DNA of 57,573 bases. It comes from an uncultured Eubacteriales bacterium (GTDB taxonomy: Bacteria; Bacillota; Clostridia; Oscillospirales; Acutalibacteraceae). A program made the position numbers and the translations under genes. Below, in pieces: positions 647 through 57,573 of this stretch (the first letter of the stretch is position 1; each line of letters begins with the position of its first letter). The DNA lies in assembly GCA_964369215.1 (NCBI GenBank), contig CAYJEZ010000002.1, positions 1-57,573 on the forward strand, written 5' to 3'. Under the pieces are notes generated by a model that was given only the letters and a program-made list of their open reading frames with translations, did no database searches and had not been told where the DNA came from.

Positions 647-2647
647 TTAGTTAAATGAATAAGACTCTGCTTTTTTAAGGTAATGATTACTGTTAAGCAA
701 AACAGCCATGTCGTCATAATTAATAAGGTCTTTTGAATCTACGCTGAAATCATAATGAAACATCACGTGCAAAGGATTAGAATGAACTTTATTATTGAAA
801 CTAGTTGAATTCCTAATAATTGCAATATCGCTAAAGTTAACTATTCCATCATCGTTTAAGTCTCCTGGAATAAGAGAAATAGTACTTATTTCAGGGTTAT
901 TATGGCTTGTTAACCAAATATCATCATTTGTTATACTTATGTTTTTTATCTCACAAGTCAAGTGAGACAATTTGCTAACTTCCAATCTATAGGTACCTGA
1001 ATTCAATTCTGTAAATTCAAATGGTGTAGTGCTAGAAAGCGTCGGTCCATCAATAGTATAAGGATCCCAGTCGAGTGGAAAACTTATGGTATCTACTACT
1101 TTATTAGCGGAGTCATATAGTGTTAAAGTAGTGCTACTATAAGGCGTGTAGGTCTCTACCACTCCACTTATAGTAAATCCAGGTAATATCGAGAAAAACT
1201 TAATATATTCGCCATTACCACTTGGAGTAAAATTAGAGTGCTCTCCAAAATAAACAGCTGCACCCGGAGCTAAACTAGGAGAAGAAGTATTAGTGTAGTA
1301 TTGTGCTGTTGGTTTTATATTCCAGTCAGAATCTTTAAAAGCATAAGGTCCTTCAGAGTCTTTTTCGGCTAAAGCTATATAAAAGTTCTCTACTAACTTT
1401 GATGTGCTCTCTACACCTAAAACATCTGCTACTATATTAAAGTAAGCTTCATAATCTTTTTGAGCATTACCAGTATAAGGTAAACTAGCTCCCCTTGTAA
1501 TAATTTCTTTAAAAACTTCGTTTGTTTTATCATACTGAGTTGGTAAATACATACCAAGTAAATAAGATAAAGCATAATTGTTTAGGCTACTTTCCCAATC
1601 AGTTAAAGAAACAGAGCCATTTTTTATGTAGCTATTTGTATTAAATGTAGTTACTCGTCCTTGTGAAGTTGCATTGTCAGGCCCATATATAAGGTTAGTA
1701 GAAGCTTCTGAAAAAGCCTCATTCAAAAATGTAGGTTTATAGGTATTAGGTGAATTAACAAAAGCTATAAGGTGTTGAAACTCATGAACTAAAGTTCCAA
1801 AACATTTAGATACAGTTCTATTTGTTGTGTTGCCAGAAGTAAGACCCATGCCATTAACAGAGTCCATATGTATCATGTCCATTTGATTATTATTTATGGA
1901 AGAAAACAAATCTCCTGAATAGAAATAGCCTGAAATGTATGAGCTTGTAGCTGGACCATTTTTTTCAATATCATAGCAAACAATAGCGATTTTTCCGTCT
2001 GAATCTATATCGCTATATTTATATAAGGTGTCAATTGGATCTCCAAAATAGTTAACCATATCATCATACACTCTATCAAATTCGACGCCAATCGTTGTAG
2101 CATCAGAAGAATTAATAGGATAAAGTAAAGTATTTGTCGGAGCCCATACAGTGCAATGGTCACCTACATATAATACCTCAAAATTTTCTGAAGTTGATGA
2201 TGTATTTATGCTTCCACTACTGGTTTTTACCGTAAGTTGTTTAGTATTTCCAACGCTATAAGCGTAAGAAATATCAGCGTCGATTACACTTTGTGATTCT
2301 TCACTGGAAAGTGGAGCAATAATTTCGTCTTGTGGTAGAAAAGACGACGGGTCTATAATACCTTGGCCGTTTTCATCATAACCCATAATGTTTTCTTCTA
2401 TCACAGGCTCAGAGATAGAATAATTATTGTTATCGTCAGAGTTTATTGACGGAAGAGCACCTATTGTGGTTGCTGTTGGGCTAGTATTAAAAAAGTCATC
2501 TTGACTGTTAACAGCAACTAGAGTATCTCCAGTATATGGAGCCTCTAGTTGAACTCCGGCAAACACTATGCTATTTGTTGAAGTTACAAACATTATAAAA
2601 ACGAGTAACAGCGATATCTTTTTTATAAATTTTCTTGTTTTTAACAT
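647..2647 (-). CDS. secreted gluzincin metallopeptidase (M30/hyicolysin-like or thermolysin-like active site) with a C-terminal dockerin
   Basis: An N-terminal signal peptide is present (MLKTRKFIKKISLLLVFIMFVTSTNSIVFAG). The HEFQH motif lies at nt 1772-1786, followed 18 aa later by NEAFSE (compare thermolysin NEAISD). The C-terminus has a dockerin-type Ca-binding repeat, GDLNDDGIVNFSDIAIIRNS, plus a degenerate second repeat. An SD sequence (GAAAGGA) lies upstream. Confidence 0.75.
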   Translation of the reverse strand: MLKTRKFIKKISLLLVFIMFVTSTNSIVFAGVQLEAPYTGDTLVAVNSQDDFFNTSPTATTIGALPSINSDDNNNYSISEPVIEENIMGYDENGQGIIDPSSFLPQDEIIAPLSSEESQSVIDADISYAYSVGNTKQLTVKTSSGSINTSSTSENFEVLYVGDHCTVWAPTNTLLYPINSSDATTIGVEFDRVYDDMVNYFGDPIDTLYKYSDIDSDGKIAIVCYDIEKNGPATSSYISGYFYSGDLFSSINNNQMDMIHMDSVNGMGLTSGNTTNRTVSKCFGTLVHEFQHLIAFVNSPNTYKPTFLNEAFSEASTNLIYGPDNATSQGRVTTFNTNSYIKNGSVSLTDWESSLNNYALSYLLGMYLPTQYDKTNEVFKEIITRGASLPYTGNAQKDYEAYFNIVADVLGVESTSKLVENFYIALAEKDSEGPYAFKDSDWNIKPTAQYYTNTSSPSLAPGAAVYFGEHSNFTPSGNGEYIKFFSILPGFTISGVVETYTPYSSTTLTLYDSANKVVDTISFPLDWDPYTIDGPTLSSTTPFEFTELNSGTYRLEVSKLSHLTCEIKNISITNDDIWLTSHNNPEISTISLIPGDLNDDGIVNFSDIAIIRNSTSFNNKVHSNPLHVMFHYDFSVDSKDLINYDDMAVLLNSNHYLKKAESYSFN

Positions 2648-2817
2648 AAATATAATCCTAATCCTTTCAATAACGGGTAAATATTTATTCTATCTATATC
2701 TAATCATTATATCATAATTAATAAAATTAAACAAGTAAGAAATGTTACGTTTTGTTAATATTCAAAAGTTTTTTAGAATAAAATTTCTCTTTTTATTAGT
2801 AAAAATAAACTAAGGCA

Positions 2818-2846
2818 TTGCAATTGTAAATTATTTAAGCTATACT
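2818..2846 (+). promoter_or_regulatory. sigma-A type promoter for the Nudix-ABC operon
   Basis: TTGCAA-17 nt-TATACT. Confidence 0.6.
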
Positions 2847-2891
2847 ACAAATAATGTTAATAAATTTATATGATTTATAAGGAGATTTGAC

Positions 2892-3359
2892 ATGAGTATA
2901 CGAAATGCTGTTAGGGCAATAGTTGTAAAAAACAATAAAATTTTACTTAATAAGTGTAAATCTGAAGCCGATAATTGCGTTTACTACATTCTTCCCGGTG
3001 GAGGACAAAACATATATGAGAGCATGGAGGAAGCTGTTGTTAGAGAGATAAAAGAGGAGACAGGTTGGTCTGTAAAAGCTCTTAGAATTGTAGCTTTAGG
3101 AGAGCTGATATTTACCGACAAAAACTACAGAGAAGAACATCCGAATTATAGCCACAGATTATTCGTTTATTTTATTTGTGAGTTAGCTAGTGATATAAGA
3201 GAAAATGCAAGTGAATTAGACTTTGAGCAAGAAGGCAGCGTGTGGGTTGATATTAATGAGGTTGACAATTTAAATTTTGAAAGTGCATTGACCGAGGGAA
3301 AGCTTGTTGAGATTATTAATTCTAAAGAGATACTTAACCTTGGTACAGTGTATAAGTGA
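2892..3359 (+). CDS. NUDIX hydrolase
   Basis: Nudix box GGGQNIYESMEEAVVREIKEETG. An AAGGAG SD lies 7 nt upstream of the ATG. Confidence 0.85.
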   Translation: MSIRNAVRAIVVKNNKILLNKCKSEADNCVYYILPGGGQNIYESMEEAVVREIKEETGWSVKALRIVALGELIFTDKNYREEHPNYSHRLFVYFICELASDIRENASELDFEQEGSVWVDINEVDNLNFESALTEGKLVEIINSKEILNLGTVYK

Positions 3360-3366
3360 GGAAAGT

Positions 3367-4206
3367 ATGAGTATTATAGAAATTAAAAATTTTGTAAAAA
3401 CTTACGGGGATTTTACTGCAGTTAAAAATATAGATTTAAGTGTTGAAAAAGGGTTGATAGTTGGATTTGTAGGAAAAAACGGCGCAGGAAAGAGCACTAC
3501 GCTCAGAACAATGTTAAATATGCTTAACCCTACAAGCGGAAAAATTAGTGTTTTAGGTTTAGACAGTCAAAAAGACACAAAAAAAATAAAGACTATGGTA
3601 AGTTATATTCCAAGTGAGTCTTCATTTTATGAAAACATTAGCTGCGAAAAACTGCTTAATTTTGCTATGCAATTTACTAATACATCTAAAGAAGAAATTA
3701 AGAAGCTTGCCGATTATTTCGAACTCGACTTAACAAAAAAAATAAACGAGTTGAGTTTTGGTAACAGAAAAAAACTCTCGTTAATACAAGGTTTTATAAA
3801 AAGTGCTGAGTTAATTGTGCTTGACGAACCAACAAATGGCCTAGACCCACTTATGCAGAATAAATTTTTTGAGCTGTTACTTAGTGAAAAATCTAAAGGA
3901 AAAACTGTGTTTTTATCGAGCCATAATTTAACTGAAATAGAGAAATATTGCGATAAGGTTGCTATTATAAAAGACGGCGAGATTGTAGATTATTTTGACA
4001 TGAAAGACGTAAAAATAAAGCATAAACAAGTGGTAAGCTATATGACTCAAGACGGAGTAAACAAGACTTATGAAATTGACGAAGATATCAACTTGCTTAT
4101 TAAAAAGCTGTCTAAGATTAATCTAATAAGCTTAGAAATTAAGACAAAAACCGTAGAAGAAGAATTTATTTCATACTATAAAAATGATGAGGAAGGAGTT
4201 GTGTAA
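3367..4206 (+). CDS. ABC transporter ATP-binding protein
   Basis: Walker A GKNGAGKST, signature LSFGNRKK and Walker B LIVLDEP are present. I moved the start to ATG 3367 (MSIIEIKNF...), because the track ORF begins inside the upstream Nudix gene. Confidence 0.9.
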   Translation: MSIIEIKNFVKTYGDFTAVKNIDLSVEKGLIVGFVGKNGAGKSTTLRTMLNMLNPTSGKISVLGLDSQKDTKKIKTMVSYIPSESSFYENISCEKLLNFAMQFTNTSKEEIKKLADYFELDLTKKINELSFGNRKKLSLIQGFIKSAELIVLDEPTNGLDPLMQNKFFELLLSEKSKGKTVFLSSHNLTEIEKYCDKVAIIKDGEIVDYFDMKDVKIKHKQVVSYMTQDGVNKTYEIDEDINLLIKKLSKINLISLEIKTKTVEEEFISYYKNDEEGVV

Positions 4207-4208
4207 TA

Positions 4209-5027
4209 GTGAAAAACGTTGATTTTTCTAATATACTAAAGCTATGTAAGTTTAATTTAACAATAACAAAAAAGTCTATAATTGGTTGGACTATAGCTAT
4301 TTTTTCAATTATGACTCTTTATATGATTATGTTCTCGTCTATTCAAGATTTAGCTCAGGCTAAATTTGATGCAATGCCTAAAGAGCTTATGCAGTTTGTA
4401 GGTATGGAAGATATGTCTGACATGTCTGATTACACTACTTATTTTGGTATGATATATAATTTAATTTTAGTTGCGGTATCTATTTTTGCGGCTACTTATT
4501 CAGCAGGTTTAATTACAAAAGAAGAAAAAACAAAGTCTATTGAATTTTTAAATTCACTTGCAGTAAGCAAAACAGAGATTTATATATCAAAATATTTGAC
4601 CTCTACTGTTGCAGTAGCAATAGTGTTAACTGGTGCAATACTTGCAGCAATTGCTTGTGGCTTTATTAATGGCGGAGAAAGTTTTAGCCTAGCAGACATT
4701 ATTTCTTCTGCTAAAATAACCAGTTTTAGCGCTCTAATTTTTGGCAGTATAGGTTTAATGCTTGCAGGAATTAACTCAAAAATAGGAACGGGTGCAGTAG
4801 CGTCTTCAGTTGTTTTAGCAAGCTATATGCTAGGTTATTTAGGCGAACTTCTAGGAGAAAATGGTGAATTTCTATTGAATTTCTCCCCTTTCATTACTTT
4901 AAATGTAAATGATGTTATTGCTTTTAACGAGCAACTAATATATATTTTATTTATATATATTTTAGTATATACTGTTGCTATATTATTAGGTGGAGTTATA
5001 TATAGAAAGAGAGATTTATATATATAA
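4209..5027 (+). CDS. ABC-2 type transporter permease
   Basis: The protein is polytopic and hydrophobic (about 6 TM segments). Its GTG start lies 2 nt after the ATPase stop, and a GGAAGGAG SD lies upstream. Confidence 0.75.
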   Translation: MKNVDFSNILKLCKFNLTITKKSIIGWTIAIFSIMTLYMIMFSSIQDLAQAKFDAMPKELMQFVGMEDMSDMSDYTTYFGMIYNLILVAVSIFAATYSAGLITKEEKTKSIEFLNSLAVSKTEIYISKYLTSTVAVAIVLTGAILAAIACGFINGGESFSLADIISSAKITSFSALIFGSIGLMLAGINSKIGTGAVASSVVLASYMLGYLGELLGENGEFLLNFSPFITLNVNDVIAFNEQLIYILFIYILVYTVAILLGGVIYRKRDLYI

Positions 5028-5191: not shown

Positions 5192-7408
5192 GTGGATGTA
5201 ATAAATAAGTTATCACATTCAGATATTAAAGTGGCTGCTATTTTTATAGGAATAGCTTTTGTTGCTATGACTGTATTATCGATTTGGTTCGACTATTTAC
5301 TGGGCAATGAGCTACAGCTTTCAATTAATAATGAGCTTGAGAGTTTATCTACACAACAACAGATTATTATTCAAAATCAGAATTTTACAAATATTAACAG
5401 TCTTTCAATAATGGCAACTGCTATTTCTGAAGGGCATGTTAAAGTTGATGATATTGAAGATTACCTAAAATCACAGAAATCAATATTAGGATTTAATGAA
5501 GTGTATTATGTTAATTTAGATGGCGAAGGAGTTTCATGCGAAGGTAAGAGAGTGAACTTTTCTGACAATGAAGCGTATATTAATGCTATTGAGAGCGGGG
5601 AGCATTACTCATCAATAACTGGAGACGCAACAACAAATAACGGTATTATGGATATAGCGTATCCTATAAATGTTAACGGTAAGGTGCAAGGAGTTTTGCT
5701 TGGTAAAAATGATATTAAAGGAGTTATTGATCAACTTATTACTGTTGTAGGAGAAAATGGGTATATTGTAATTACTAATTCTGAAGGAAAAGATTTAGTT
5801 ACCTCTGATGATGACTATGTCCCTTTTTCCTATTTGTCTGAATCTAATGTTGTTTTAGGTGAAGGTGAATCTATAACAAAAGTACAGCAAGATTTAGCTG
5901 AGGGTGTTGGTGGAAAGCTAACTTTTACAATATTAGGGGTTACCAGAATAGCTCAGTATACACCTTTAGGATTTGGTGGATTGAACGTAGTAATTGTTCT
6001 TGACGAAACAAGTTTTGAGAGCGGAATAAAAGAGATAACAAGTATTGTTGACGTTATTAGCTTTTGGATAATGTTTGTTTTTGTAGGGTTTATATTGCAT
6101 ACTTGGAACGTTCAAAGAAGAAGCATAAAAAAGATTGAAGAAGCAGCCTATATTGACAAACTTACTAATTTACCTAACTTAGCAAAATTAAAAAAAGACT
6201 TAAGTTATATTCTTAACGAAAATAAAGATAAGCAATATACTATAATAAAGGTAGACGTGAAGAACTTTAAGTCTATAAACGAGATATATGGTTTTGATAT
6301 AGGAAATAAATTTTTGCAGGTGTTCAAATCAATTAGTGAAACAGCACCTGAAAAATCTTTGATAGTAGCAAGAATTGGTATTGACGAGTTTATTTTCTTC
6401 TCAGGTAATGGTTTTTTAGACACTTTAGAAGAGTCTACAGCACATTACGAGTCTTTCTTTAAAATGATTATTCCTGAGCTTAAAGATCATCATCTTGCCT
6501 TTAGTTATGGGCGATATAAAATTACACTAGGTGAAACAGATATAGACGAAATAATTAATAAAGTAAGTCTTGCACATACTATGTCTAAAGAAAAGAAGAA
6601 CAGTGCAATTTATGACTATGATGACGATTATAAACAAAAAGTGTTAGTTCAAACAACAATTATTAACAAGATGAAAAAAGCCTTACAAAACAATGAGTTT
6701 GTGGCGTTTTTACAGCCAAAAGTTAATTTGAATACATATAAACTTGTTGGAGCTGAGGCATTAGTAAGATGGATAGAATCCGATGGTAAAATAATATTTC
6801 CAAATGAATTTATTCCTGTATTTGAGAGCAATGGATTTATTGTTGAACTAGATAAGTTTATTTTAGAATGTGTGTGTAAGTCACTTAGTAAATGGAGAAC
6901 TGAAGGAAAAGCATGTTACCCTATTTCAGTTAATTTTTCAAGACTACACCTAGAAAAATTTAATTTTATTGAAGATATAAAGCAGATAGTAGATAAATAT
7001 GAAGTACCCCATGAGCTGATTGAAATAGAAATAACAGAGACTACTGTATTGCAAAATGAAGCAGTTTTAGGAAAATTTATTGATGATTTGCACAATGAAA
7101 AATTTACAATATCAATTGATGATTTTGGTGCAGGCTATTCTTCTTTAGGATTATTAAAAGATTTTAAATTTAATACTTTAAAACTAGACAGAAGCTTTTT
7201 AAGCAACACAAAAGACAATAAACGTGGAGAAATAGTAATAGAGGGAATAGTAAACCTAGCACATTCTTTGAATTTAGACCTAATTGCTGAAGGCATAGAA
7301 GATGAACCCCAAATAGAATTTTTACGTTCTATAAATTGCCAAGCAGCACAGGGTTACTATTTTGCTAAACCTATGCCTATAATTGATTTTGAAAAACAAT
7401 ATATATAA
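5192..7408 (+). CDS. membrane c-di-GMP signalling protein: Cache-like sensor, degenerate GGDEF domain, EAL phosphodiesterase domain
   Basis: An N-terminal TM segment, a periplasmic Cache-like region and a second TM segment come first. The GGDEF site reads RIGIDEF (nt 6371-6391). The EAL domain has EALVRW (EAL at nt 6755-6763), DDFGAGYSSL and EGIEDE. The GTG start is uncertain. Confidence 0.85.
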   Translation: MDVINKLSHSDIKVAAIFIGIAFVAMTVLSIWFDYLLGNELQLSINNELESLSTQQQIIIQNQNFTNINSLSIMATAISEGHVKVDDIEDYLKSQKSILGFNEVYYVNLDGEGVSCEGKRVNFSDNEAYINAIESGEHYSSITGDATTNNGIMDIAYPINVNGKVQGVLLGKNDIKGVIDQLITVVGENGYIVITNSEGKDLVTSDDDYVPFSYLSESNVVLGEGESITKVQQDLAEGVGGKLTFTILGVTRIAQYTPLGFGGLNVVIVLDETSFESGIKEITSIVDVISFWIMFVFVGFILHTWNVQRRSIKKIEEAAYIDKLTNLPNLAKLKKDLSYILNENKDKQYTIIKVDVKNFKSINEIYGFDIGNKFLQVFKSISETAPEKSLIVARIGIDEFIFFSGNGFLDTLEESTAHYESFFKMIIPELKDHHLAFSYGRYKITLGETDIDEIINKVSLAHTMSKEKKNSAIYDYDDDYKQKVLVQTTIINKMKKALQNNEFVAFLQPKVNLNTYKLVGAEALVRWIESDGKIIFPNEFIPVFESNGFIVELDKFILECVCKSLSKWRTEGKACYPISVNFSRLHLEKFNFIEDIKQIVDKYEVPHELIEIEITETTVLQNEAVLGKFIDDLHNEKFTISIDDFGAGYSSLGLLKDFKFNTLKLDRSFLSNTKDNKRGEIVIEGIVNLAHSLNLDLIAEGIEDEPQIEFLRSINCQAAQGYYFAKPMPIIDFEKQYI

Positions 7409-8588: not shown

Positions 8589-9476
8589 TTAATCTGTTAA
8601 TTTCTTAATAGGTATATATAAGTCAATTTGAGAACAAGATGATTGACAATCCCAACGTTCATCATAATATTCAAAATCGGCACATATCTCATCAAACAAG
8701 CAATATTCAGAGTTTGGCAACCATACATCATATATATAACGAAATGCAGCACCAATTTCTCCATTAGAATTATTACCATTAACCGTAAAAACTGCATACA
8801 AAGATTTGGGAATTTTCTTTACATGCATCTCTGGGTGAATATTTAAAACGCTATTCACTTCAACCGCTGCCATATAGTAAAAAGCCAATGGACTAGAACA
8901 GAAATCTTCTGAATAATCTTCAAAACCATACATCGTATTTACATCACTTCGGTCAAGACTATTCATAATTGCTTTAAGTTCTCCCCATACTTCTCCTATA
9001 ACATGCCAACCATTTTTTGTATGTTTCCGATATCCTGCAAGAATAAATGCTTCTTTTTCTACAAATTTAGGTTCCATAATATACTCTCCTATAAAATTAA
9101 CTCTTTTTATATAACTGGTAATAATAGTCTCAACACTTTTAAAGTCAATTTTCAGTTGTTTTTTTCTTGCTATAGATGGAAGTGTACCAAAAGTATTTTT
9201 AAATTGTCGGTTAAATGTCTGTATACTACTAAACCCAGATTCAAAGCATATTTCTGTTATAGTTTTATTAGTCTCGCTTAAGCTGATAAATGCCGTTTGA
9301 AGCCTACGTCTATTTATATAATCAGTTATTGTTTGACCGGTAACTGCAGAAAAAATTCTATGAAAATGAAATGATGAATAATTAAATTTACTAGCTACAG
9401 TTTCATAAGTATCTATTTCTGACAAATGCGAGTCAATATATAACAATACACTTTCAATTAACTTTAAGTTGTTCAT
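8589..9476 (-). CDS. AraC family transcriptional regulator with a GyrI-like effector-binding domain
   Basis: The N-terminus carries an AraC double HTH (FHFHRIFSAVTGQTITDYINRRRL...ITEICFESGFSSIQTFNRQFKNTFG). The C-terminus is a GyrI-like domain. An AAGGGGGAG SD lies upstream. Confidence 0.85.
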   Translation of the reverse strand: MNNLKLIESVLLYIDSHLSEIDTYETVASKFNYSSFHFHRIFSAVTGQTITDYINRRRLQTAFISLSETNKTITEICFESGFSSIQTFNRQFKNTFGTLPSIARKKQLKIDFKSVETIITSYIKRVNFIGEYIMEPKFVEKEAFILAGYRKHTKNGWHVIGEVWGELKAIMNSLDRSDVNTMYGFEDYSEDFCSSPLAFYYMAAVEVNSVLNIHPEMHVKKIPKSLYAVFTVNGNNSNGEIGAAFRYIYDVWLPNSEYCLFDEICADFEYYDERWDCQSSCSQIDLYIPIKKLTD

Positions 9477-9817
9477 TATATCTCCCCCTTTTGTAATAAG
9501 TATATACTAAATTCAAAATATCGTATTATCATTTCTTGCTTGTAATATAATTTAATATAATCTTTAATACTATTATACTTGAATAAAATTATAACGCAAT
9601 AAATTAGAGATAAAAAATAATTGTAACAGTAAAATATATTAAACGATAAAACGTATAAAGTATAATCAAAACTCTTACGTCTCAATTTTAACATCGCTTT
9701 TTATCCATATTCAGTTTATTTATATAAAGCCTCTTTACAACAGCTGTATATTTATTCGTTTTTTAATTAAAAGCGGTTAGTGATTTTAGCTTGATTTACT
9801 ATATTTTAATTATTATC

Positions 9818-11731: not shown

Positions 11732-12496
11732 CTATAATGACGACTTAATCTTTTTCATAGCAAATTTTTCAAGCCTAGATACTTGTGCTTGAGAAATGCC
11801 TATAATTTCAGCTACCTCCATTTGAGTTTTGCCCTGCATAAACCTCATTTGTAAAATAACTTTTTCTCTATTATCTAAATCTTTTATCGCTTGTTTTAAA
11901 GAGATTTCGTCTAGCCAGTCGCTGTCGCTACCCTCACCTATTTGATCTAATACATATATTGTATCTCCTGCGTCAGAAAAAACAGGCTCATATAAAGAAA
12001 TGGGCTCTACTATAGCCTCTAATGCCAAAACAACATCTTGTTTTTTCATTTCAAGATCTTTACATAGCTCTAAAATCGAAGGCTCTCTGCCATTTTTATT
12101 AATAAACTGCTCTTTACATTGCATCGCTTTGTAAGCAATATCTCTAATCGAACGACTTACTCTAACGCTGTTATTATCTCTTAAAAACCTCCTTATTTCA
12201 CCTATAATCATAGGTACACCATAGGTAGAAAACTGCACCCCATGTTTTAAATCAAAATGATCTATAGCTTTTATTAAACCTATACAACCTACTTGAAATA
12301 AATCATCAGGATTTTCACCTCTACAAGCAAATCTTTGTATAACACTTAAAACTAACCTTAAATTCCCCGCAATTAAACTCTCTCTAGCCCTTAAATCTCC
12401 GTTTTTTACTGCTTTTAATAGCTCTATTGTTTCACTGTTCTTTAAAACTTTTAATTTTGCTGTGTTTACACCGCAAATATCTACTTTAGTATGCAT
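11732..12496 (-). CDS. sigG: sporulation RNA polymerase sigma factor SigG
   Basis: The sequence matches B. subtilis SigG nearly motif for motif (VDICGVNTAKLKVLKN, GNLRLVLSVIQRF, DLFQVGCIGLIKAID, GKTQMEVAEIIGISQAQVSRLEK). The start is ATG 12496, which follows an AGGTGG SD. Confidence 0.85.
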   Translation of the reverse strand: MHTKVDICGVNTAKLKVLKNSETIELLKAVKNGDLRARESLIAGNLRLVLSVIQRFACRGENPDDLFQVGCIGLIKAIDHFDLKHGVQFSTYGVPMIIGEIRRFLRDNNSVRVSRSIRDIAYKAMQCKEQFINKNGREPSILELCKDLEMKKQDVVLALEAIVEPISLYEPVFSDAGDTIYVLDQIGEGSDSDWLDEISLKQAIKDLDNREKVILQMRFMQGKTQMEVAEIIGISQAQVSRLEKFAMKKIKSSL

Positions 12497-12551
12497 AATA
12501 ATACCACCTGTCATTTAGAGTTAAGGATATCGTTAATCTTTTACTCAAGTA

Positions 12552-12587: not shown

Positions 12588-15149
12588 TTATTTTATAAGA
12601 TCTCTTATTTCTTTTTCAGCACTTAATATCTCTTCTCTAAAACCATTTGCAGATACTCTTAAAGCGCCATTTCCCAGCACTATCATTTGCTCTACTGCAT
12701 CAGATGTTGCTACTCTAACTCGATATTTATCAGACATTTTTTTAGTTACTTTCTCTATATACATGTCTGCTGTTTCAGCCTCTTTTGTGTAAACAACGCT
12801 TATGTTATCGTGCTTAACAATAGTTTCTTTATTTCCTTTAACTTTATATGCATCAAATACCAAAATCAAGTCACAATTTTTATATGCCGCATAATTTGTT
12901 AATATGTCAATTAACTTATTTCTAGCAGCATCAATATTAATTTTTGCTAACTCATTAAGCTCTTGCCAAGCAAATATTATATTATAGCCATCGACTAATA
13001 TATATTCAGGTCCAATATGGGTAGACTTATGCCTTTTATAATTAATATTACTTTTACTTTTAATAGGGCTTGAAAACGTAACTCTTGGGTCTGTCTTGAT
13101 TTTACCATAAGTACTCTCAAAAATAGATAAAAGTTCTTTGTCATCTTGTATAGCTAAACCCTTATCGTAAATAGCACCTGCTCTTTTAGCACTTTTTATC
13201 TCTTGTATATCTTTTTCTTTTTCAGATTTAATATGCATATATTCCTCTGCTTTATCCCATTTAACTATAAAACCACTTCCGTGAGAGCAAAAAACAGACG
13301 CACTTGGGTTCTCTGGGTCGTTTTCAGCATCGTATGAAAAAGCTTTAATTACTTCCTCACTATTATGACATTTATCATAACCATTATAATAATATGAGTA
13401 CTTGCCCAAACCTTTTGTATAGCGTATTACCTCTTTCGAGTAGTCAATACTAGTTGCAGCCGGTAATAAGCCGGAAATTATTGTGAAGTCGCCAACGGTT
13501 TCAGGAGTATTAAAGCTTCCTCCCATTTGTTGAATGTCACTTATTGCCTTGCCTACATATTCAGAGCTTACCTCTAGTTTAAAGGCATATACAGGCTCAA
13601 GTAAAATGCTTTTCGCCCTCATAAGCCCATGCCTAAACGCCCTGTAGGTCGCTTGCCTAAAGTCACCTCCTGTGGTGTGCTTAACATGCCCTCTTCCGTC
13701 AACCAGTGTTATTTTAATATCTGTTACAGGTGAGTTTGTAAGAACACCCGTATGGTTTTTTTCAAGTATATGCGTAAGCACTAAATTCTGCCAGTTTTTA
13801 TCAAAAAGGTCGTGTTTTGCTTTGTTGTCTACATAAATTCCGCTTCCTCTAGGCATTGGCTCTAGCTTTAAATGCACTTCTGCGTAATGCTTTAAAGGTT
13901 CAAAATGCCCCATGCCAATAACTTGCTCGATAATTGTCTCTTTATATACTATATTACCTTTGTCAAACTCAACTAAATATCCAAATCTCTCTTCAATAAG
14001 GCTTTGTAAAACTTCAACCTGAATTGCACCCATAAGCCTAACTTGAATTTCTTTTAGGCTTTCACTCCACATAACTCTTAGTTCAGGGTCTTCTTGCTCT
14101 AAAAGTCTTAAATTTGCTAGTGCTCTTACGCTGTCAATCCCTTTTGGCAACATAACTTTATATACCAAAATCGGCTCTAACATTGGTGTATTTGCCTTTT
14201 CTTCAAAACCAAAGCCTTGACCAGCGTACGAGCTTAATAGCCCTGTAACAACGCAAATCTCCCCTGCAAAAACCTCCATACTAAGCTCAAACTTACTTCC
14301 GCTATAGCGCCTAATTTGGTCGACCTTCTCTTCTCTGTCAATTTGCTCTTTATCTTTATGAAAAATTACAGACTTTACCTTAAGGCTTCCACCTGTAATT
14401 TTCAAATGAGTAAGCCTGTTACCCATATTATCCCACGATATTTTAAAAACTCTTGCACCAAATTTATTACCATACTGTGAGGCTAAGGTAAACTTGTCAA
14501 ATGAGTTCATAAACTCTTCAATTCCGTCAAGTTTAAGTGCAGAACCATAAAAACAAGGAAAAACCGCTCTATTCTTTATAGCTTTTATAATTGAACTTTG
14601 TTTTAATGATAAATTCTCTAAGAATTCTTGAGTTAATTCATCGTTGCACATTGCAATGCTTTCTTCTAAATTATCACAATCAAAGTCAATAGCGTTCTCA
14701 CTCAAGTTTTTTCTTATATTCTCACTCAACTCACTTTTTTCAAATGAGCTTATATCCATTTTATTAACAAAAATAAAAGTGGGTATATTGTATCTATAAA
14801 GCAAAGACCAAAGAGTTTGAGTGTGAGCTTGCACTCCATCAATTGCACTTATAACAAGTATTGCATAATCTAGCACTTGTAGTGCTCTTTCTGCCTCAGT
14901 CGAAAAGTCAACATGTCCTGGGGTATCCAGTAAGTCTATTTCAGTTTCTCCAAAATTTAAACGTGCCTGCTTTGAGAAAATAGTAATGCCTCTATTCCTC
15001 TCTAGTTTATGTGTGTCTAAAAAAGCATTACCATGGTCAACCCTACCTAGTTTTCGTATTTTGCCCGAAGCAAAAAGCATTGCCTCAGACAAAGTAGTTT
15101 TGCCTGAGTCTACATGCGCTAATATTCCTATAGTTAACTTTTTGGGCAC
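12588..15149 (-). CDS. TetM/EF-G-like translational GTPase fused to a C-terminal YacP/Rae1-type NYN ribonuclease domain
   Basis: The GTPase motifs are G1 AHVDSGKT, G2 RGITI, G3 DTPGH, G4 NKMD and G5 GSAL. Similarity to TetM-type domains II-V runs to about aa 640. Residues 715-853 carry ILVDGYNIIFAW, LVFDAYKVKG, ETADMYIEK and VATSDAVEQ, which are YacP/Rae1 motifs. The start is a GTG with an AGGAG SD 8 nt upstream. Confidence 0.85.
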   Translation of the reverse strand: MPKKLTIGILAHVDSGKTTLSEAMLFASGKIRKLGRVDHGNAFLDTHKLERNRGITIFSKQARLNFGETEIDLLDTPGHVDFSTEAERALQVLDYAILVISAIDGVQAHTQTLWSLLYRYNIPTFIFVNKMDISSFEKSELSENIRKNLSENAIDFDCDNLEESIAMCNDELTQEFLENLSLKQSSIIKAIKNRAVFPCFYGSALKLDGIEEFMNSFDKFTLASQYGNKFGARVFKISWDNMGNRLTHLKITGGSLKVKSVIFHKDKEQIDREEKVDQIRRYSGSKFELSMEVFAGEICVVTGLLSSYAGQGFGFEEKANTPMLEPILVYKVMLPKGIDSVRALANLRLLEQEDPELRVMWSESLKEIQVRLMGAIQVEVLQSLIEERFGYLVEFDKGNIVYKETIIEQVIGMGHFEPLKHYAEVHLKLEPMPRGSGIYVDNKAKHDLFDKNWQNLVLTHILEKNHTGVLTNSPVTDIKITLVDGRGHVKHTTGGDFRQATYRAFRHGLMRAKSILLEPVYAFKLEVSSEYVGKAISDIQQMGGSFNTPETVGDFTIISGLLPAATSIDYSKEVIRYTKGLGKYSYYYNGYDKCHNSEEVIKAFSYDAENDPENPSASVFCSHGSGFIVKWDKAEEYMHIKSEKEKDIQEIKSAKRAGAIYDKGLAIQDDKELLSIFESTYGKIKTDPRVTFSSPIKSKSNINYKRHKSTHIGPEYILVDGYNIIFAWQELNELAKINIDAARNKLIDILTNYAAYKNCDLILVFDAYKVKGNKETIVKHDNISVVYTKEAETADMYIEKVTKKMSDKYRVRVATSDAVEQMIVLGNGALRVSANGFREEILSAEKEIRDLIK

Positions 15150-15192
15150 TCACACCACTCCTAGTTAATTTATTTGTTTGGTATTAAAAACA

Positions 15193-15232
15193 AGTAGAGA
15201 CGAGTAAGGGCTCGCCTTCCGTCTCTACAATA
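15193..15232 (-). terminator. rho-independent terminator after the PpiC-type isomerase gene
   Basis: On the minus strand: GTAGAGACG-gaaggcgagcccttact-CGTCTCTAC-TTGTTTTT. Confidence 0.75.
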
Positions 15233-22521: not shown

Positions 22522-22890
22522 TCACTTTACAGGTTTCTCTGAATAAAGTTTTTTGTTTTGAGAATCATAGTCTCTTTTTACATTATAATTAAATTTATCT
22601 ACATACGCTTTCGATATTTCCTCAGGCTTTATATCAAAGCATACTAAAATATCATTATAATACATTAAAACATCTGCAAGCTCAGTGCAAAAATTCGCCC
22701 TTACATTTTCGTCTTCCATTATAGCTGTTTCACCTTTTTTCTTTAAAATAGCTATAACTTCGCCAATTTCCTCTACCATATAAAGCACATGATTTTTAGC
22801 TATTCTAGGCTCTAAGCGAGACCAATGTTTATGTACCTCGTGCAAATCTTTTTGCATTTGTATCATATCCGTAAAATTTATTTCACTCAT
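22522..22890 (-). CDS. MazG-like nucleotide pyrophosphohydrolase domain protein
   Basis: The MazG metal-binding motifs are present: EExGE (MVEEIGEV) and ELADVLMY. Confidence 0.7.
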   Translation of the reverse strand: MSEINFTDMIQMQKDLHEVHKHWSRLEPRIAKNHVLYMVEEIGEVIAILKKKGETAIMEDENVRANFCTELADVLMYYNDILVCFDIKPEEISKAYVDKFNYNVKRDYDSQNKKLYSEKPVK

Positions 22891-52193: not shown

Positions 52194-52613
52194 TTAAATG
52201 TAAATAGCTATGTTAATTTTCTCAAACAGTAAATTAACATAAGCGTCGTGATTATAGTTCATAGGTTCTGTATGCGGAAAAAACAGTATCATTCTTATTA
52301 TATAAACTACTAAAAATAAGGCAATTACTAATGTTAATAAGAATCTGCATTGCTTTGACTTATTTGAAAAAAAATTAGGCTTAATAATGTATAAAATAAG
52401 AATAATAGGTAAAATCCAAAATAGAGGGTGCATAAAAAAAGCCATTGAGAAATCTGCTTTAAAAAGCGCTAAATATGCCCTAGTTATTCCGCAACTAGGG
52501 CAAGGAAATCCAGTAGCGTTTCTTACAACACAACTAATATCAAGAATTAGTATTAGAAACGCACCTATCGTAATATATGAAAAATTTTTAATCCATTTTT
52601 TATATATTGACAT
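52194..52613 (-). CDS. DUF2752-like small membrane protein
   Basis: The CPSCGITRA motif and 4 TM segments are present. The start is ATG 52613 or TTG 52619, and it overlaps the galT 3' end. Confidence 0.6.
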   Translation of the reverse strand: MSIYKKWIKNFSYITIGAFLILILDISCVVRNATGFPCPSCGITRAYLALFKADFSMAFFMHPLFWILPIILILYIIKPNFFSNKSKQCRFLLTLVIALFLVVYIIRMILFFPHTEPMNYNHDAYVNLLFEKINIAIYI

Positions 52614-54090
52614 ACTCAATGAACCTTAAAAAAGCCGCTCTTCCCTCTTCTGTACACTTAAACACACCCGCGTCTTCTAGCACTTTCTCAAAAGCAAGGC
52701 CTACCTCGTTTTCTAAAATAGTGTCCACATTTTCTGCAGTTATATTCTCATGCTTTGCCAAAATACCCTCAACCCAGTTTCTATGAACACAAAGGCTCTC
52801 TGGAATTTCTTGTTTGTTTACAATGATATCAGCAATTTGGCTCATCTCTTTTTTAAGCCTTGCAGGCAAAACGGCTAAGCCCATAACCTCTATAAGCCCT
52901 ATGTTCTCTTTTTTAATATTATGTAGCTCTTTATGTGGGTGATACACGCCAAGCGGGTGCTCGTCAGTGCAAATATTATTTCTTAAAACTAAGTCAAACT
53001 CATAAAATTCGCCCTTTTTTCTTGAAATAGGGGTAATTGTATTATGAGGAGTGTCTTCTGTATAAGCAAAAATAAAGCTATCTTTGTCGCTATAGGCTCT
53101 CCATTTTTCAAGAATATGATCTGCAAGCTCTACTAGTCTGTTGTCGTTTTTCGACTTAATTCTTATAACAGACATAGGCCATTTAACTATTTGTGCACTC
53201 ACGTCTTCAAAGCCTTTAAACTCTATATCAAGCTCTTTTTCTGCCTTCTCCATAGCAAAAGTGTAGCTTCCGCCTTGAAAGTGGTCGTGACTTAAAATAG
53301 AGCCACCTACTATAGGTAAATCTGCATTAGAGCCAACAAAGTAATGTGGAAATTGCTTAACAAAGTCTAAAAGCTTTCTAAAGCTAGATTTATCCACTAC
53401 CATAGGCTCGTGCTCACCTTTAAAAATTATGCTGTGCTCGTTGTAATATGTGTACGGAGAGTACTGAAAATACCATTGCTCGTTATTAATTGTAACAGGC
53501 ATAGCCCTTAAATTTTGTCTTGCTGGGTGGTTAAGTCTGCCAGCGTACCCCTCGTTTTCTTTACATAACATACACTTTGGGTAACCACTTTGTTTTGCCA
53601 AACGCTCGGCAGCTATGTCTTTGGGGTCTTTCTCTGGTTTAGACAAATTTACAGTAATGTCTAAGTCTCCATAAGCCGAGTTGTACGACCACTTAAGGTC
53701 TTTTATTACTCTATACTTTCTTATGTAGTCGCTATCTATAGAAACTGCGTAAAAATAATCTGTAGCTTTAACAGGGTCTTCCTCGTAAAGCTCACCGAAA
53801 ACCTCTATCATCTCTGAGGGTTTTGGTGTAAATACACCCATAACTTTTGTTGTAAATAAATCTTTACAAGTGGTAGTATCTTCTATAATATTCTCACTAA
53901 TTGCGTACTGACTTAAAGCATTAAGCACGTTCTCCAGCTCTATTTCATCATATGCTACATCTACTTCTTCAAATTCGTCAAGTCTTAAAACATCTAACAA
54001 GCAATTAGTTGCCCAAATTCTGTCTGTCTCCTTTATTAAGCCTTTGTTTAACGCATAGTATACTAATTTAGAAATTTCTTTATTAAGCAT
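52600..54090 (-). CDS. galT: UDP-glucose--hexose-1-phosphate uridylyltransferase (type 2 GalT)
   Basis: The length of about 495 aa fits the Firmicutes-type GalT. The motifs are CMLCKENEGYAG, YFQYSPYTYYNEHSI and GGSILSHDHFQGG. Confidence 0.88.
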   Translation of the reverse strand: MLNKEISKLVYYALNKGLIKETDRIWATNCLLDVLRLDEFEEVDVAYDEIELENVLNALSQYAISENIIEDTTTCKDLFTTKVMGVFTPKPSEMIEVFGELYEEDPVKATDYFYAVSIDSDYIRKYRVIKDLKWSYNSAYGDLDITVNLSKPEKDPKDIAAERLAKQSGYPKCMLCKENEGYAGRLNHPARQNLRAMPVTINNEQWYFQYSPYTYYNEHSIIFKGEHEPMVVDKSSFRKLLDFVKQFPHYFVGSNADLPIVGGSILSHDHFQGGSYTFAMEKAEKELDIEFKGFEDVSAQIVKWPMSVIRIKSKNDNRLVELADHILEKWRAYSDKDSFIFAYTEDTPHNTITPISRKKGEFYEFDLVLRNNICTDEHPLGVYHPHKELHNIKKENIGLIEVMGLAVLPARLKKEMSQIADIIVNKQEIPESLCVHRNWVEGILAKHENITAENVDTILENEVGLAFEKVLEDAGVFKCTEEGRAAFLRFIEYVNI

Positions 54091-57048: not shown

Positions 57049-57501
57049 TCATTTTATGAGGTGCTTGACATAATGAATTTCATCTTCATCTCTTGACACT
57101 TCAACATATCCAAATTTTGAATATAAATGCTGGTTTCCTATACTAAATGTAGGAGTTGATAGTCGCCATTCAGTTATATCAGGATTTAATTGTTCATTTA
57201 ATTTCATCACTTCAAAACCATAGCCTTTATTTTGATAAGATGGGTGGATAACAAAGTCTTCAAATCCCATTGTTTCTTTATTTATAGGATAAAGGAAAAA
57301 AGCTCCGATTATTTTTTCATCCAATAATACTTTGTACGCATAGAATGATTTAATAATATTTAATTGAGACGATATTTCATCATAGCCTTGAGGTCCACCA
57401 TCTCTACCTAAATAAGCATTAATTTCTGCGTTATATGCAAGTGTTTTTATAGTGGTTATTTGCATAGCATCATCATTTGTTGCCCTTAATAATGTTAACA
57501 T
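57049..57501 (-). CDS. GNAT family N-acetyltransferase
   Basis: The motif is YQNKGYGFEVM. The start at ATG 57501 follows a GGAGG SD. Confidence 0.75.
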   Translation of the reverse strand: MLTLLRATNDDAMQITTIKTLAYNAEINAYLGRDGGPQGYDEISSQLNIIKSFYAYKVLLDEKIIGAFFLYPINKETMGFEDFVIHPSYQNKGYGFEVMKLNEQLNPDITEWRLSTPTFSIGNQHLYSKFGYVEVSRDEDEIHYVKHLIK

Positions 57502-57573
57502 ATTACCTCCAATTATAAAAATAATGCGAAGCAAGTTCAGAGTAGGGAACGGTCTTGACCGTTCCGTCTTCCC

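Follow-up and report, generated by a model that had tools for sequence, protein, structure and literature searches.

A Clostridial protein family fuses an EF-G/Tet-type translational GTPase to a YacP/Rae1-type NYN nuclease core

A translational GTPase and a Rae1-type nuclease core are encoded in a single protein

A gene in a 57,573-nucleotide stretch of an uncultured Eubacteriales genome (hereafter the window; contig CAYJEZ010000002.1 of assembly GCA_964369215.1, family Acutalibacteraceae) encodes an EF-G/Tet-type GTPase and a YacP/Rae1-type NYN nuclease core in a single protein. This fusion, proposed in an initial annotation made from the sequence alone, is confirmed by the analysis reported here. 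The gene occupies positions 12588..15149 of the minus strand and forms, as first described, one uninterrupted frame of 853 codons with a GTG start and a TAA stop; full-length homologues exist. The five GTPase motifs lie where they had been placed (AHVDSGKT, residues 11-18; RGITI, 53-57; DTPGH, 75-79; NKMD, 129-132; GSAL, 202-205), and the alignments to TetM and Bacillus subtilis YacP that it gave are reproduced by HMMER searches against Protein Data Bank (PDB) chains. The Pfam family suggested for verification, NYN_YacP (PF05991), gives a significant match of 158 bits (cut-off 24.6). Within its large and conserved family the window copy is nothing unusual, and what makes the fusion interesting is the family and not this locus.

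The fusion is a genuine gene found in many Clostridial genomes

Searches among 5.8 billion proteins returned homologues whose best 120 all carry the same Pfam set, at 54-63% identity and with a query coverage that, where reported, is 99% or more. One genome per GTDB species was scanned with a profile built on residues 590-853, which identified at least 600 stretches, 597 of them confirmed, giving at least 597 fusion loci in species-representative genomes of Oscillospiraceae, Ruminococcaceae and Lachnospiraceae. The best 80 of these loci were used to compare reading frames and flanking genes. They include Faecalibacterium, Ruminococcus (with the isolate R. flavefaciens ND2009), Gemmiger formicilis, Flavonifractor hominis and Anaerotruncus, Acutalibacteraceae and Ruminiclostridium, and the Lachnospiraceae genera Blautia, Roseburia, Anaerobutyricum, Marvinbryantia and Herbinix. 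In 78 of the 80 loci the gene is one uninterrupted open reading frame (ORF) of 839-1037 amino acids spanning query residues 3-852. The two exceptions are a metagenome-assembled genome (MAG) with a probable frameshift and a locus ended by a contig edge. In the former, a Ruminococcus MAG (L021, 6212-8819), the gene appears as overlapping ORFs of 194 and 720 amino acids, which probably reflects a sequencing frameshift rather than gene fission.

The possibility that an assembly error or frameshift joined two separate genes is refuted by these comparative data, as all of the 120 best homologues, which come from independent sources, share the architecture, the frame is uninterrupted in 78 independent genomes including those of the cultured R. 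flavefaciens ND2009, G. formicilis and F. hominis, the junction region itself carries conserved elements, and the one anomalous MAG shows the reverse, a gene broken in two, probably by a sequencing frameshift. The junction, for which a comparison with orthologous genomes had been advised at the outset, is thus genuine.

An exhaustive HMMER search with residues 590-853 against 1.84 billion cluster representatives detected 480 clusters, defined at 50% identity, at E ≤ 1e-30. The number rises to 1610 at E ≤ 1e-10 and to 3208 at E ≤ 1e-3. Each of the best 150 matches is either a complete fusion or clearly a piece of one. Apparent stand-alone relatives, for example a 181-residue protein with 66% identity (P0267), were rejected as fragments that begin within the linker or at an internal start.

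The family is nearly absent from mobile elements. Only two full-coverage matches were found in the plasmid collection, both in records of very large 'plasmids' (518 kb in Monoglobus and 252 kb in Agathobacter), and only two in the phage collection, both in unannotated faecal 'Bacteriophage sp.' contigs. Given this near-absence from plasmid and phage collections, a mobile resistance gene was rejected as an explanation for the fusion. Two such unannotated contigs from human faeces, MT835563.1 and MT835514.1, encode the linker and NYN part at 50% and 40% identity, respectively, and are likely bacterial contigs filed as phage.

The GTPase module has an EF-G fold and a family-specific domain IV tip

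The N-terminal module (residues 1-597) comprises five domains, all encoded on the minus strand like the rest of the protein. The G domain (residues 5-219; 14493..15137) is matched by Pfam GTP_EFTU (E = 2e-48) and contains the G1-G5 motifs, the catalytic His79 and a short, Tet-like G' insertion. Domain II (residues 230-304; 14238..14462) is assigned from the AlphaFold2 model and from an EF-G_D2 match that is below the Pfam cut-off (E = 4.4e-05, 23.9 bits), and domain III (residues 345-395; 13965..14117) from a weak EFG_III match, the model and Foldseek. Domain IV (residues 400-513; 13611..13952) is matched by EFG_IV (E = 1.4e-18) and domain V (residues 516-597; 13359..13604) by EFG_C (E = 1.5e-18), the latter also being present in the model. 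The full-length AlphaFold2 model, built from a 118-sequence alignment, has a mean predicted local distance difference test score (pLDDT) of 81.9, with values mostly above 80 across residues 1-640, and adopts the five-domain EF-G fold with Foldseek E-values of about 1e-51 to EF-G structures. The best PDB sequence matches are TetO (4V6V, 238 bits) and TetM (3J9Y, 236 bits), both over residues 4-592. One member (P0188, 1156 amino acids) carries an insertion of about 300 residues within its G domain, so that GTP_EFTU spans residues 3-520; the insert has no Pfam match.

In an alignment of 278 distinct full-length members the P-loop and NKxD motif are invariant and H79 is kept in 277, and the GTPase module formed by domains I-V is apparently catalytically competent. 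The loops at the tip of domain IV, GHFEPLKHYAEVH and GRGHVKHTTGGDFRQ, are family-specific and near-invariant. Loop III has the family consensus AGRAHxKHTEGGDF, and its residues K490, H491, T492, G494, G495, D496, F497 and R498 are kept in at least 266 of the 278 members. The tip is consequently conserved to the same degree as the catalytic motifs, which argues for a specific ribosomal contact.

The fusion protein is neither a Tet ribosomal protection protein nor EF-G

No curated NCBIfam model attains its cut-off on the fusion protein. The best-scoring model, tet_protect (NF012153), gives 415 bits against a cut-off of 775, the TetM/W/O/S model (NF033148) 277 against 1100, and two further Tet models 298 against 900 and 291 against 1425. 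The EF-G models behave similarly, with 277 bits against 659 for TIGR00484 and 314 against 583 for NF009381. This explains why the sources name family members either generically, as 'translation factor GTPase family protein', or wrongly, as 'TetM/TetW/TetO/TetS family'. The warning in the initial annotation that the protein would be mislabelled was well founded, since sources do name family members TetM/W/O/S resistance proteins.

The domain IV loops point in the same direction. Published structural work on TetM identifies YSPVS as the tetracycline-displacing motif. In loop III the fusion protein has GRGHVKHTTGGDF where TetO and TetM have LYYSPVSTPADF (YYSPVSTPADF), and YSPVS is absent; aligned across the three groups, the loop reads DGRGHVKHTTGGDFRQ in the fusion protein, YGLYYSPVSTPADFR in TetO and DGSYHEVDSSEMAFK in EF-G. 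Loop I, which in the fusion protein (GHFE--PLKHYAEVH) lacks the EF-G motif GGRGQYGH, reads IHIEVPPNPFWASV in TetO and GKFIRLTGGRGQYGHV in EF-G. It is the domain IV loops of Tet proteins that dislodge tetracycline (PMC4342817).

The fusion shares with Tet(M) and Tet(O) (PDB 3J9Y, 4V6V) the five domains, the short G' insertion and one continuous alignment over residues 4-592. However, a C-terminal extension is found in Tet proteins where the fusion has a helix-hairpin element, a tether and a nuclease, and the fusion gene is not mobile and occurs in housekeeping contexts in many species. With EF-G it shares the fold, the G motifs and the DG..H pattern at the start of loop III, but it lacks both the long G' insertion and the loop I GGRGQYGH motif. 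Overall, these comparisons of sequence and domain content indicate that the fusion protein is not a Tet ribosomal protection protein, nor is it EF-G.

The nuclease module is a Rae1-type NYN core that ends where the Rae1 tail would begin

The C-terminal module (residues 715-853; 12591..13007, minus strand) is a YacP/Rae1-type NYN core, matched by Pfam NYN_YacP over residues 717-850 with an E-value of 2.7e-46. Chains of B. subtilis YacP/Rae1 (5MQ8, 5MQ9) align to residues 716-849 in HMMER searches against the PDB. In this alignment, from which the numbering of catalytic residues is taken, D720, D766, D795 and D817 pair with D7, D53, D81 and D104 of the PIN-like site of YacP. The first three are present in 278 of 278 members and D817 in 277, and the early reading that the acidic active-site residues are intact is accordingly borne out by both the alignment and the family-wide conservation. 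As the GTPase motifs and the NYN acidic residues are both near-invariant, both enzymatic centres are under purifying selection. When the C-terminal part is modelled alone, Foldseek superimposes it on Rae1 (5MQ9, 5MQ8) with template modelling scores of 0.69-0.74 and root mean square deviations of 1.7-3.4 Å over about 137 columns.

The NYN match stops at position 136 of the 166-position Pfam model, where the protein itself ends, so the C-terminal segment of stand-alone Rae1 (positions 137-166) is absent. Two subtypes can be distinguished by this feature. Short-tail proteins, with at most 6 residues after the NYN core, account for 185 of the 278 members. The window protein is one of them, as are most of those with an Oscillospiraceae, Ruminococcaceae or Acutalibacteraceae label. 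Long-tail proteins, with at least 20 residues after the core, account for 60. Nearly all Lachnospiraceae-labelled members keep the Rae1 tail of about 30 amino acids, and their Pfam matches reach positions 156-165 of 166; tail-keeping Lachnospiraceae-labelled loci are L026-L029, L038, L046, L049, L050, L056-L058, L063 and L080.

The fusion NYN core is 36-39% identical to B. subtilis Rae1/YacP in the structural alignment, the four acidic residues align, and ribosome-dependent mRNA cleavage leading to trans-translation is a presumed further likeness. Rae1 exists on its own, with about 170 amino acids and a C-terminal tail, whereas the core of the window protein is tail-less and tethered to a 600-residue GTPase. 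The genomic setting also differs, rae1 being part of a cysS-mrnC-rlmB-rae1-sigH cluster and the fusion gene being encoded elsewhere, beside sigG and a gene for a peptidyl-prolyl isomerase (PPIase). The 50-57 kb part of the window was considered as a candidate gltX-cysS-mrnC-rlmB-(rae1)-sigH cluster and ruled out, NCBIfam assigning galT, a MATE transporter and HAD hydrolases there. No second NYN_YacP or translational GTPase gene is present in the window, and no short NYN ORF was found in 85 loci at about 15 kb per genome, a span that leaves co-occurrence with a stand-alone rae1 unsettled.

Stand-alone YacP-like NYN genes with about 45% identity to the NYN core of the fusion are carried by Clostridioides difficile plasmids (H7-H15, 96-135 kb) and by 32 Ligilactobacillus plasmids. 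Similar stand-alone genes are found in 'phage' records of Listeria, Enterococcus and Staphylococcus.

The spacer contains two conserved elements and a flexible tether

The initial annotation described a Lys/Ser-rich linker of about 70 amino acids between the two modules. A basic disordered stretch does exist, but the spacer from domain V to the NYN core is 117 amino acids long in the window protein (family median 117, range 96-246) and contains two conserved elements. The first, element A (residues 598-640; 13230..13358, minus strand), consists of a helix, a β-hairpin and a short helix according to the alignment and model. Y606, D611, S618, F620, C621, H623, G624, W631 and H639 are near-invariant in it, as is C594 just before it, and C594, C621, H623 and H639 could possibly form a metal-binding site. 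Its pLDDT is 82-90 in the full-length model and 43-62 when the GTPase is omitted. As it is modelled confidently only in the presence of the GTPase, we take element A to pack on the GTPase body.

Element A is followed by linker 1 (residues 641-668; 13146..13229, minus strand), a variable stretch of about 30 amino acids across the family that is acidic or mixed in composition and modelled as a low-confidence helix. Element B (residues 669-683; 13101..13145, minus strand) is a conserved amphipathic helix with the consensus D-K-E-L-x-x-I-F-E-R-T-Y-G. It leads into linker 2 (residues 684-714; 13008..13100, minus strand), a disordered stretch of about 31 amino acids that is basic and proline-rich across the family (27% lysine plus arginine and 11% proline) with a pLDDT of 32-35. 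In the AlphaFold2 model pLDDT falls below 50 at residues 644-669 and 687-711. The spacer beyond element A is thus modelled as a flexible tether of about 75 residues in which one helix is conserved and one stretch is basic and disordered. Neither element A nor element B matches a known fold in Foldseek searches with the C-terminal part modelled alone.

The architecture has been reported before

Tet proteins with a YacP-like NYN domain were described in ten Clostridiales species by Atkinson, who proposed an RNase-based resistance mechanism for such fusions (Atkinson 2015, BMC Genomics, PMC4342817), and 'TetM-NYN_YacP fusion proteins' of unclear role were noted in Clostridia by Matelska and co-workers (Matelska et al., 2017, NAR, PMC5499597). 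These published fusions have the same architecture (GTP_EFTU, EF-G domains II-V and NYN_YacP) and the same Clostridial home, and as nothing qualitative sets the window protein apart from them it is another member. The architecture was therefore not new, as the initial annotation had supposed; its statement that no member is characterised agrees with our full-text literature searches, in which no study of the fusion's function, structure or genetics came to light. Compared with the earlier papers, the present analysis adds the family size of at least 597 species genomes, the invariance of both active sites, the two conserved spacer elements, the two subtypes with and without the Rae1 tail, and the explicit failure of Tet membership tests.

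Two recent reports on Rae1 bear on the function of the fusion. A 2026 preprint finds that Rae1 makes substrates for transfer-messenger RNA (tmRNA) on collided ribosomes (PMC13622287), and the model of mRNA cleavage by Rae1 in the ribosomal A site has been given up by the authors who proposed it (PMC12407103). The latter had been a premise of the initial annotation, and with it gone the delivery of the nuclease to the A site by domain IV does not follow.

The fusion is best read as a GTPase-targeted mRNA nuclease

We lean, with somewhat better than even confidence, towards a chromosomal fusion of housekeeping type that acts as a tethered Rae1-type nuclease, docked at the ribosomal factor-binding site and cutting mRNA on stalled or collided ribosomes. 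The GTPase in its GTP form would dock at the factor-binding site, as EF-G and its Tet relatives do, placing the family-specific domain IV tip in or near the decoding centre, where it may read a feature of the decoding region. Stalled or collided ribosomes would be selected in that their factor site stays available and the factor is retained long enough. The tethered NYN domain could then find and cut single-stranded mRNA, either at that ribosome's edge or where it meets its collided neighbour, yielding a truncated mRNA for tmRNA-mediated rescue (trans-translation) and decay, as is now assigned to free B. subtilis Rae1. GTP hydrolysis would time or release the factor, and the covalently attached GTPase would replace or reinforce whatever targets free Rae1 to ribosomes. 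A polymer-length estimate for the tether of about 75 residues with its basic segment is compatible with a reach of several tens of ångströms from the factor site. Of the original proposal, a GTPase-delivered A-site nuclease, what stands as the best reading is a GTPase-targeted, ribosome-dependent mRNA nuclease in quality control, and what falls is delivery to the A site.

Support for this reading comes from the domain architecture and folds, the many genomes with one intact frame, the conservation of both active sites and of the domain IV tip, the predicted tether, the housekeeping chromosomal neighbours of the gene, the lack of a defence match and the near-absence from plasmids and phages. 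Several points weigh against it. For every member, homology is the basis on which ribosome binding, both enzymatic activities (GTPase and nuclease) and the substrate are assigned. Members of the Lachnospiraceae type retain the Rae1 tail, so the GTPase is not a simple substitute for the tail everywhere. YacP was first linked, by gene neighbourhood, to rRNA and tRNA processing (PMC5499597), and there is no structure of ribosome-bound Rae1 because its binding is transient (PMC13622287).

A bolder version of the proposal holds that in Oscillospirales and Lachnospirales, to which genera dominant in the human gut such as Faecalibacterium, Ruminococcus, Roseburia and Blautia belong, the fusion is the cell's Rae1, delivered by its GTPase via the factor site. 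Residence time and GTP hydrolysis would sense the stall or collision and the tether would put the NYN domain on mRNA at the ribosome edge. We hold this version only tentatively and think it somewhat more likely to be wrong than right. Functional analogies can be drawn with other rescue systems. Hbs1-Dom34 (Pelota) is a GTPase-delivered A-site rescue factor with an unrelated fold. The SMR nucleases SmrB, Cue2 and NONU-1, likewise of unrelated fold, are recruited to stalled or collided ribosomes (SmrB, Cue2: PMC13622287). None of these is a covalent fusion of an EF-G-type GTPase and a nuclease.

An alternative that we consider unlikely is that the substrate is 16S or 23S rRNA or the A- or P-site tRNA, with the fusion acting in rRNA maturation or in inactivating or turning over ribosomes that are damaged or idle, as might happen during stationary phase or sporulation. 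Stand-alone yacP lies with rRNA-processing enzymes in the gltX-cysS-mrnC-rlmB operon and has been proposed to be part of an rRNA/tRNA processome (PMC5499597), the window gene is located near rsmI and other RNA methyltransferase genes, and the basic linker 2 could bind rRNA. However, translation-dependent mRNA cleavage is the sole experimentally defined NYN_YacP activity (PMC13622287, PMC12407103), the methyltransferase neighbourhood is not conserved in the 80 loci, and a tether of about 75 residues suits a distant single-stranded target better than a fixed rRNA site beside the factor.

The mechanism suggested by Atkinson 2015 (PMC4342817), in which the fusion protects the ribosome from tetracycline or another A-site drug and the nuclease adds to resistance, seems improbable to us. 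The best sequence matches in the PDB are to TetO and TetM, tet_protect scores highest among the NCBIfam models, the G' insertion is as short as in Tet and many members bear TetM/W/O/S family names in the sources, all of which agrees with it. Yet the scores are far below the Tet cut-offs (415 against 775 and 277 against 1100), the loop III motif that Tet uses on tetracycline and the Tet C-terminal extension are both replaced, and the gene, which at least 597 species-level genomes carry, has varying housekeeping surroundings with no mobile elements next to it and is nearly absent from plasmid and phage collections.

RelE-like ribosome-dependent nucleases shut down translation by cleaving RNA on ribosomes and are a precedent for a toxin or defence effector triggered by stress or phage, a role that we regard as very improbable for the fusion. 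The Rae1 preprint does speculate about defence against invader mRNA (PMC13622287) and stand-alone NYN_YacP genes occur on the C. difficile and Ligilactobacillus plasmids, but a PADLOC scan gave no defence match, no antitoxin-like or defence-island neighbour recurs in the 80 loci, and the family is widely spread over many species in housekeeping contexts.

Many of the Clostridia that are most abundant in human and ruminant guts carry a member of the fusion family, and its routine labelling as TetM/W/O/S can inflate resistome counts. The definition of Rae1-type collision rescue, in B. subtilis, is very recent. A Rae1 covalently tied to a factor that can be locked with non-hydrolysable GTP makes the position of Rae1 and the recognition of stalled ribosomes approachable. 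If the bolder version is right, the fusion would be the first natural enzyme combining a translational GTPase and a nuclease for bacterial no-go decay, and it would offer a handle for trapping Rae1 on the ribosome, with GDPNP or an H79 mutant, something not yet achieved. Should the GTPase-targeted mechanism hold, bacteria would have coupled mRNA cleavage to a translational GTPase, loosely resembling the GTPase-delivered rescue factors of eukaryotes.

The gene lies in an ordinary chromosomal region and its neighbours are not conserved

The locus belongs to an unremarkable stretch of chromosome in a spore-forming Clostridial genome of low GC content (33.5%). A Shine-Dalgarno sequence AGGAG (15158..15162, minus strand) can be read 8 nt 5' of the GTG start. 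The upstream neighbour is a PrsA-like PPIase gene, and a consensus scan places a terminator-like hairpin with a T-run at its 3' end (15198..15217, minus strand). The position of this hairpin between the two genes suggests that the fusion gene is transcribed from its own start site. Downstream, on the same strand and after a gap of 73 nt, lies sigG (11732-12514), as initially proposed and in agreement with NCBIfam NF006071 (401 bits, cut-off 372). The gap contains no terminator-like site; by eye, GAATA-N18-AATAATA in it resembles a forespore sigma-F/G promoter. In this window sigG is not adjacent to spoIIGA-sigE. Divergent genes near the fusion encode a TrmN-like methyltransferase, RsmI and an RsmC-like methyltransferase, and pgsA, rimO, recX, recA and the dcw cluster are located farther away.

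A sporulation link had been suggested on the strength of the sigG adjacency alone. This adjacency is conserved in none of the 80 related loci, nor in the three other contexts that were examined, and therefore appears incidental, the family having no conserved operon. Clustering of the flanking ORFs of the 80 loci yielded no recurrent partner, with the top cluster present in 8 of 80 at scattered positions, and an operon partner was rejected accordingly. TrmO is encoded downstream of the fusion gene in 4 of the 80 loci.

A GGDEF-EAL protein of 738 amino acids (5192-7408, plus strand) and an AraC/GyrI-like regulator (8589-9476) are encoded within a few kb of the fusion gene, with no evident link to it. 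ORFs without a match in the Pfam scan are 647-2647 (minus strand, 666 amino acids, at the left window end), 9476-9694 and 22522-22890 (both minus strand), and those without a match in the NCBIfam scan are 52194-52619 and 57049-57534 (both minus strand). In other contexts the fusion gene neighbours an EF-G paralogue together with an oxidoreductase and carAB, a NUDIX gene together with TrmO, or a divergent spoIIIA operon. The closest relative (L001, 63% identity) has a 688-amino-acid EF-G paralogue at 2782-4848, on the same strand and two genes upstream of the fusion.

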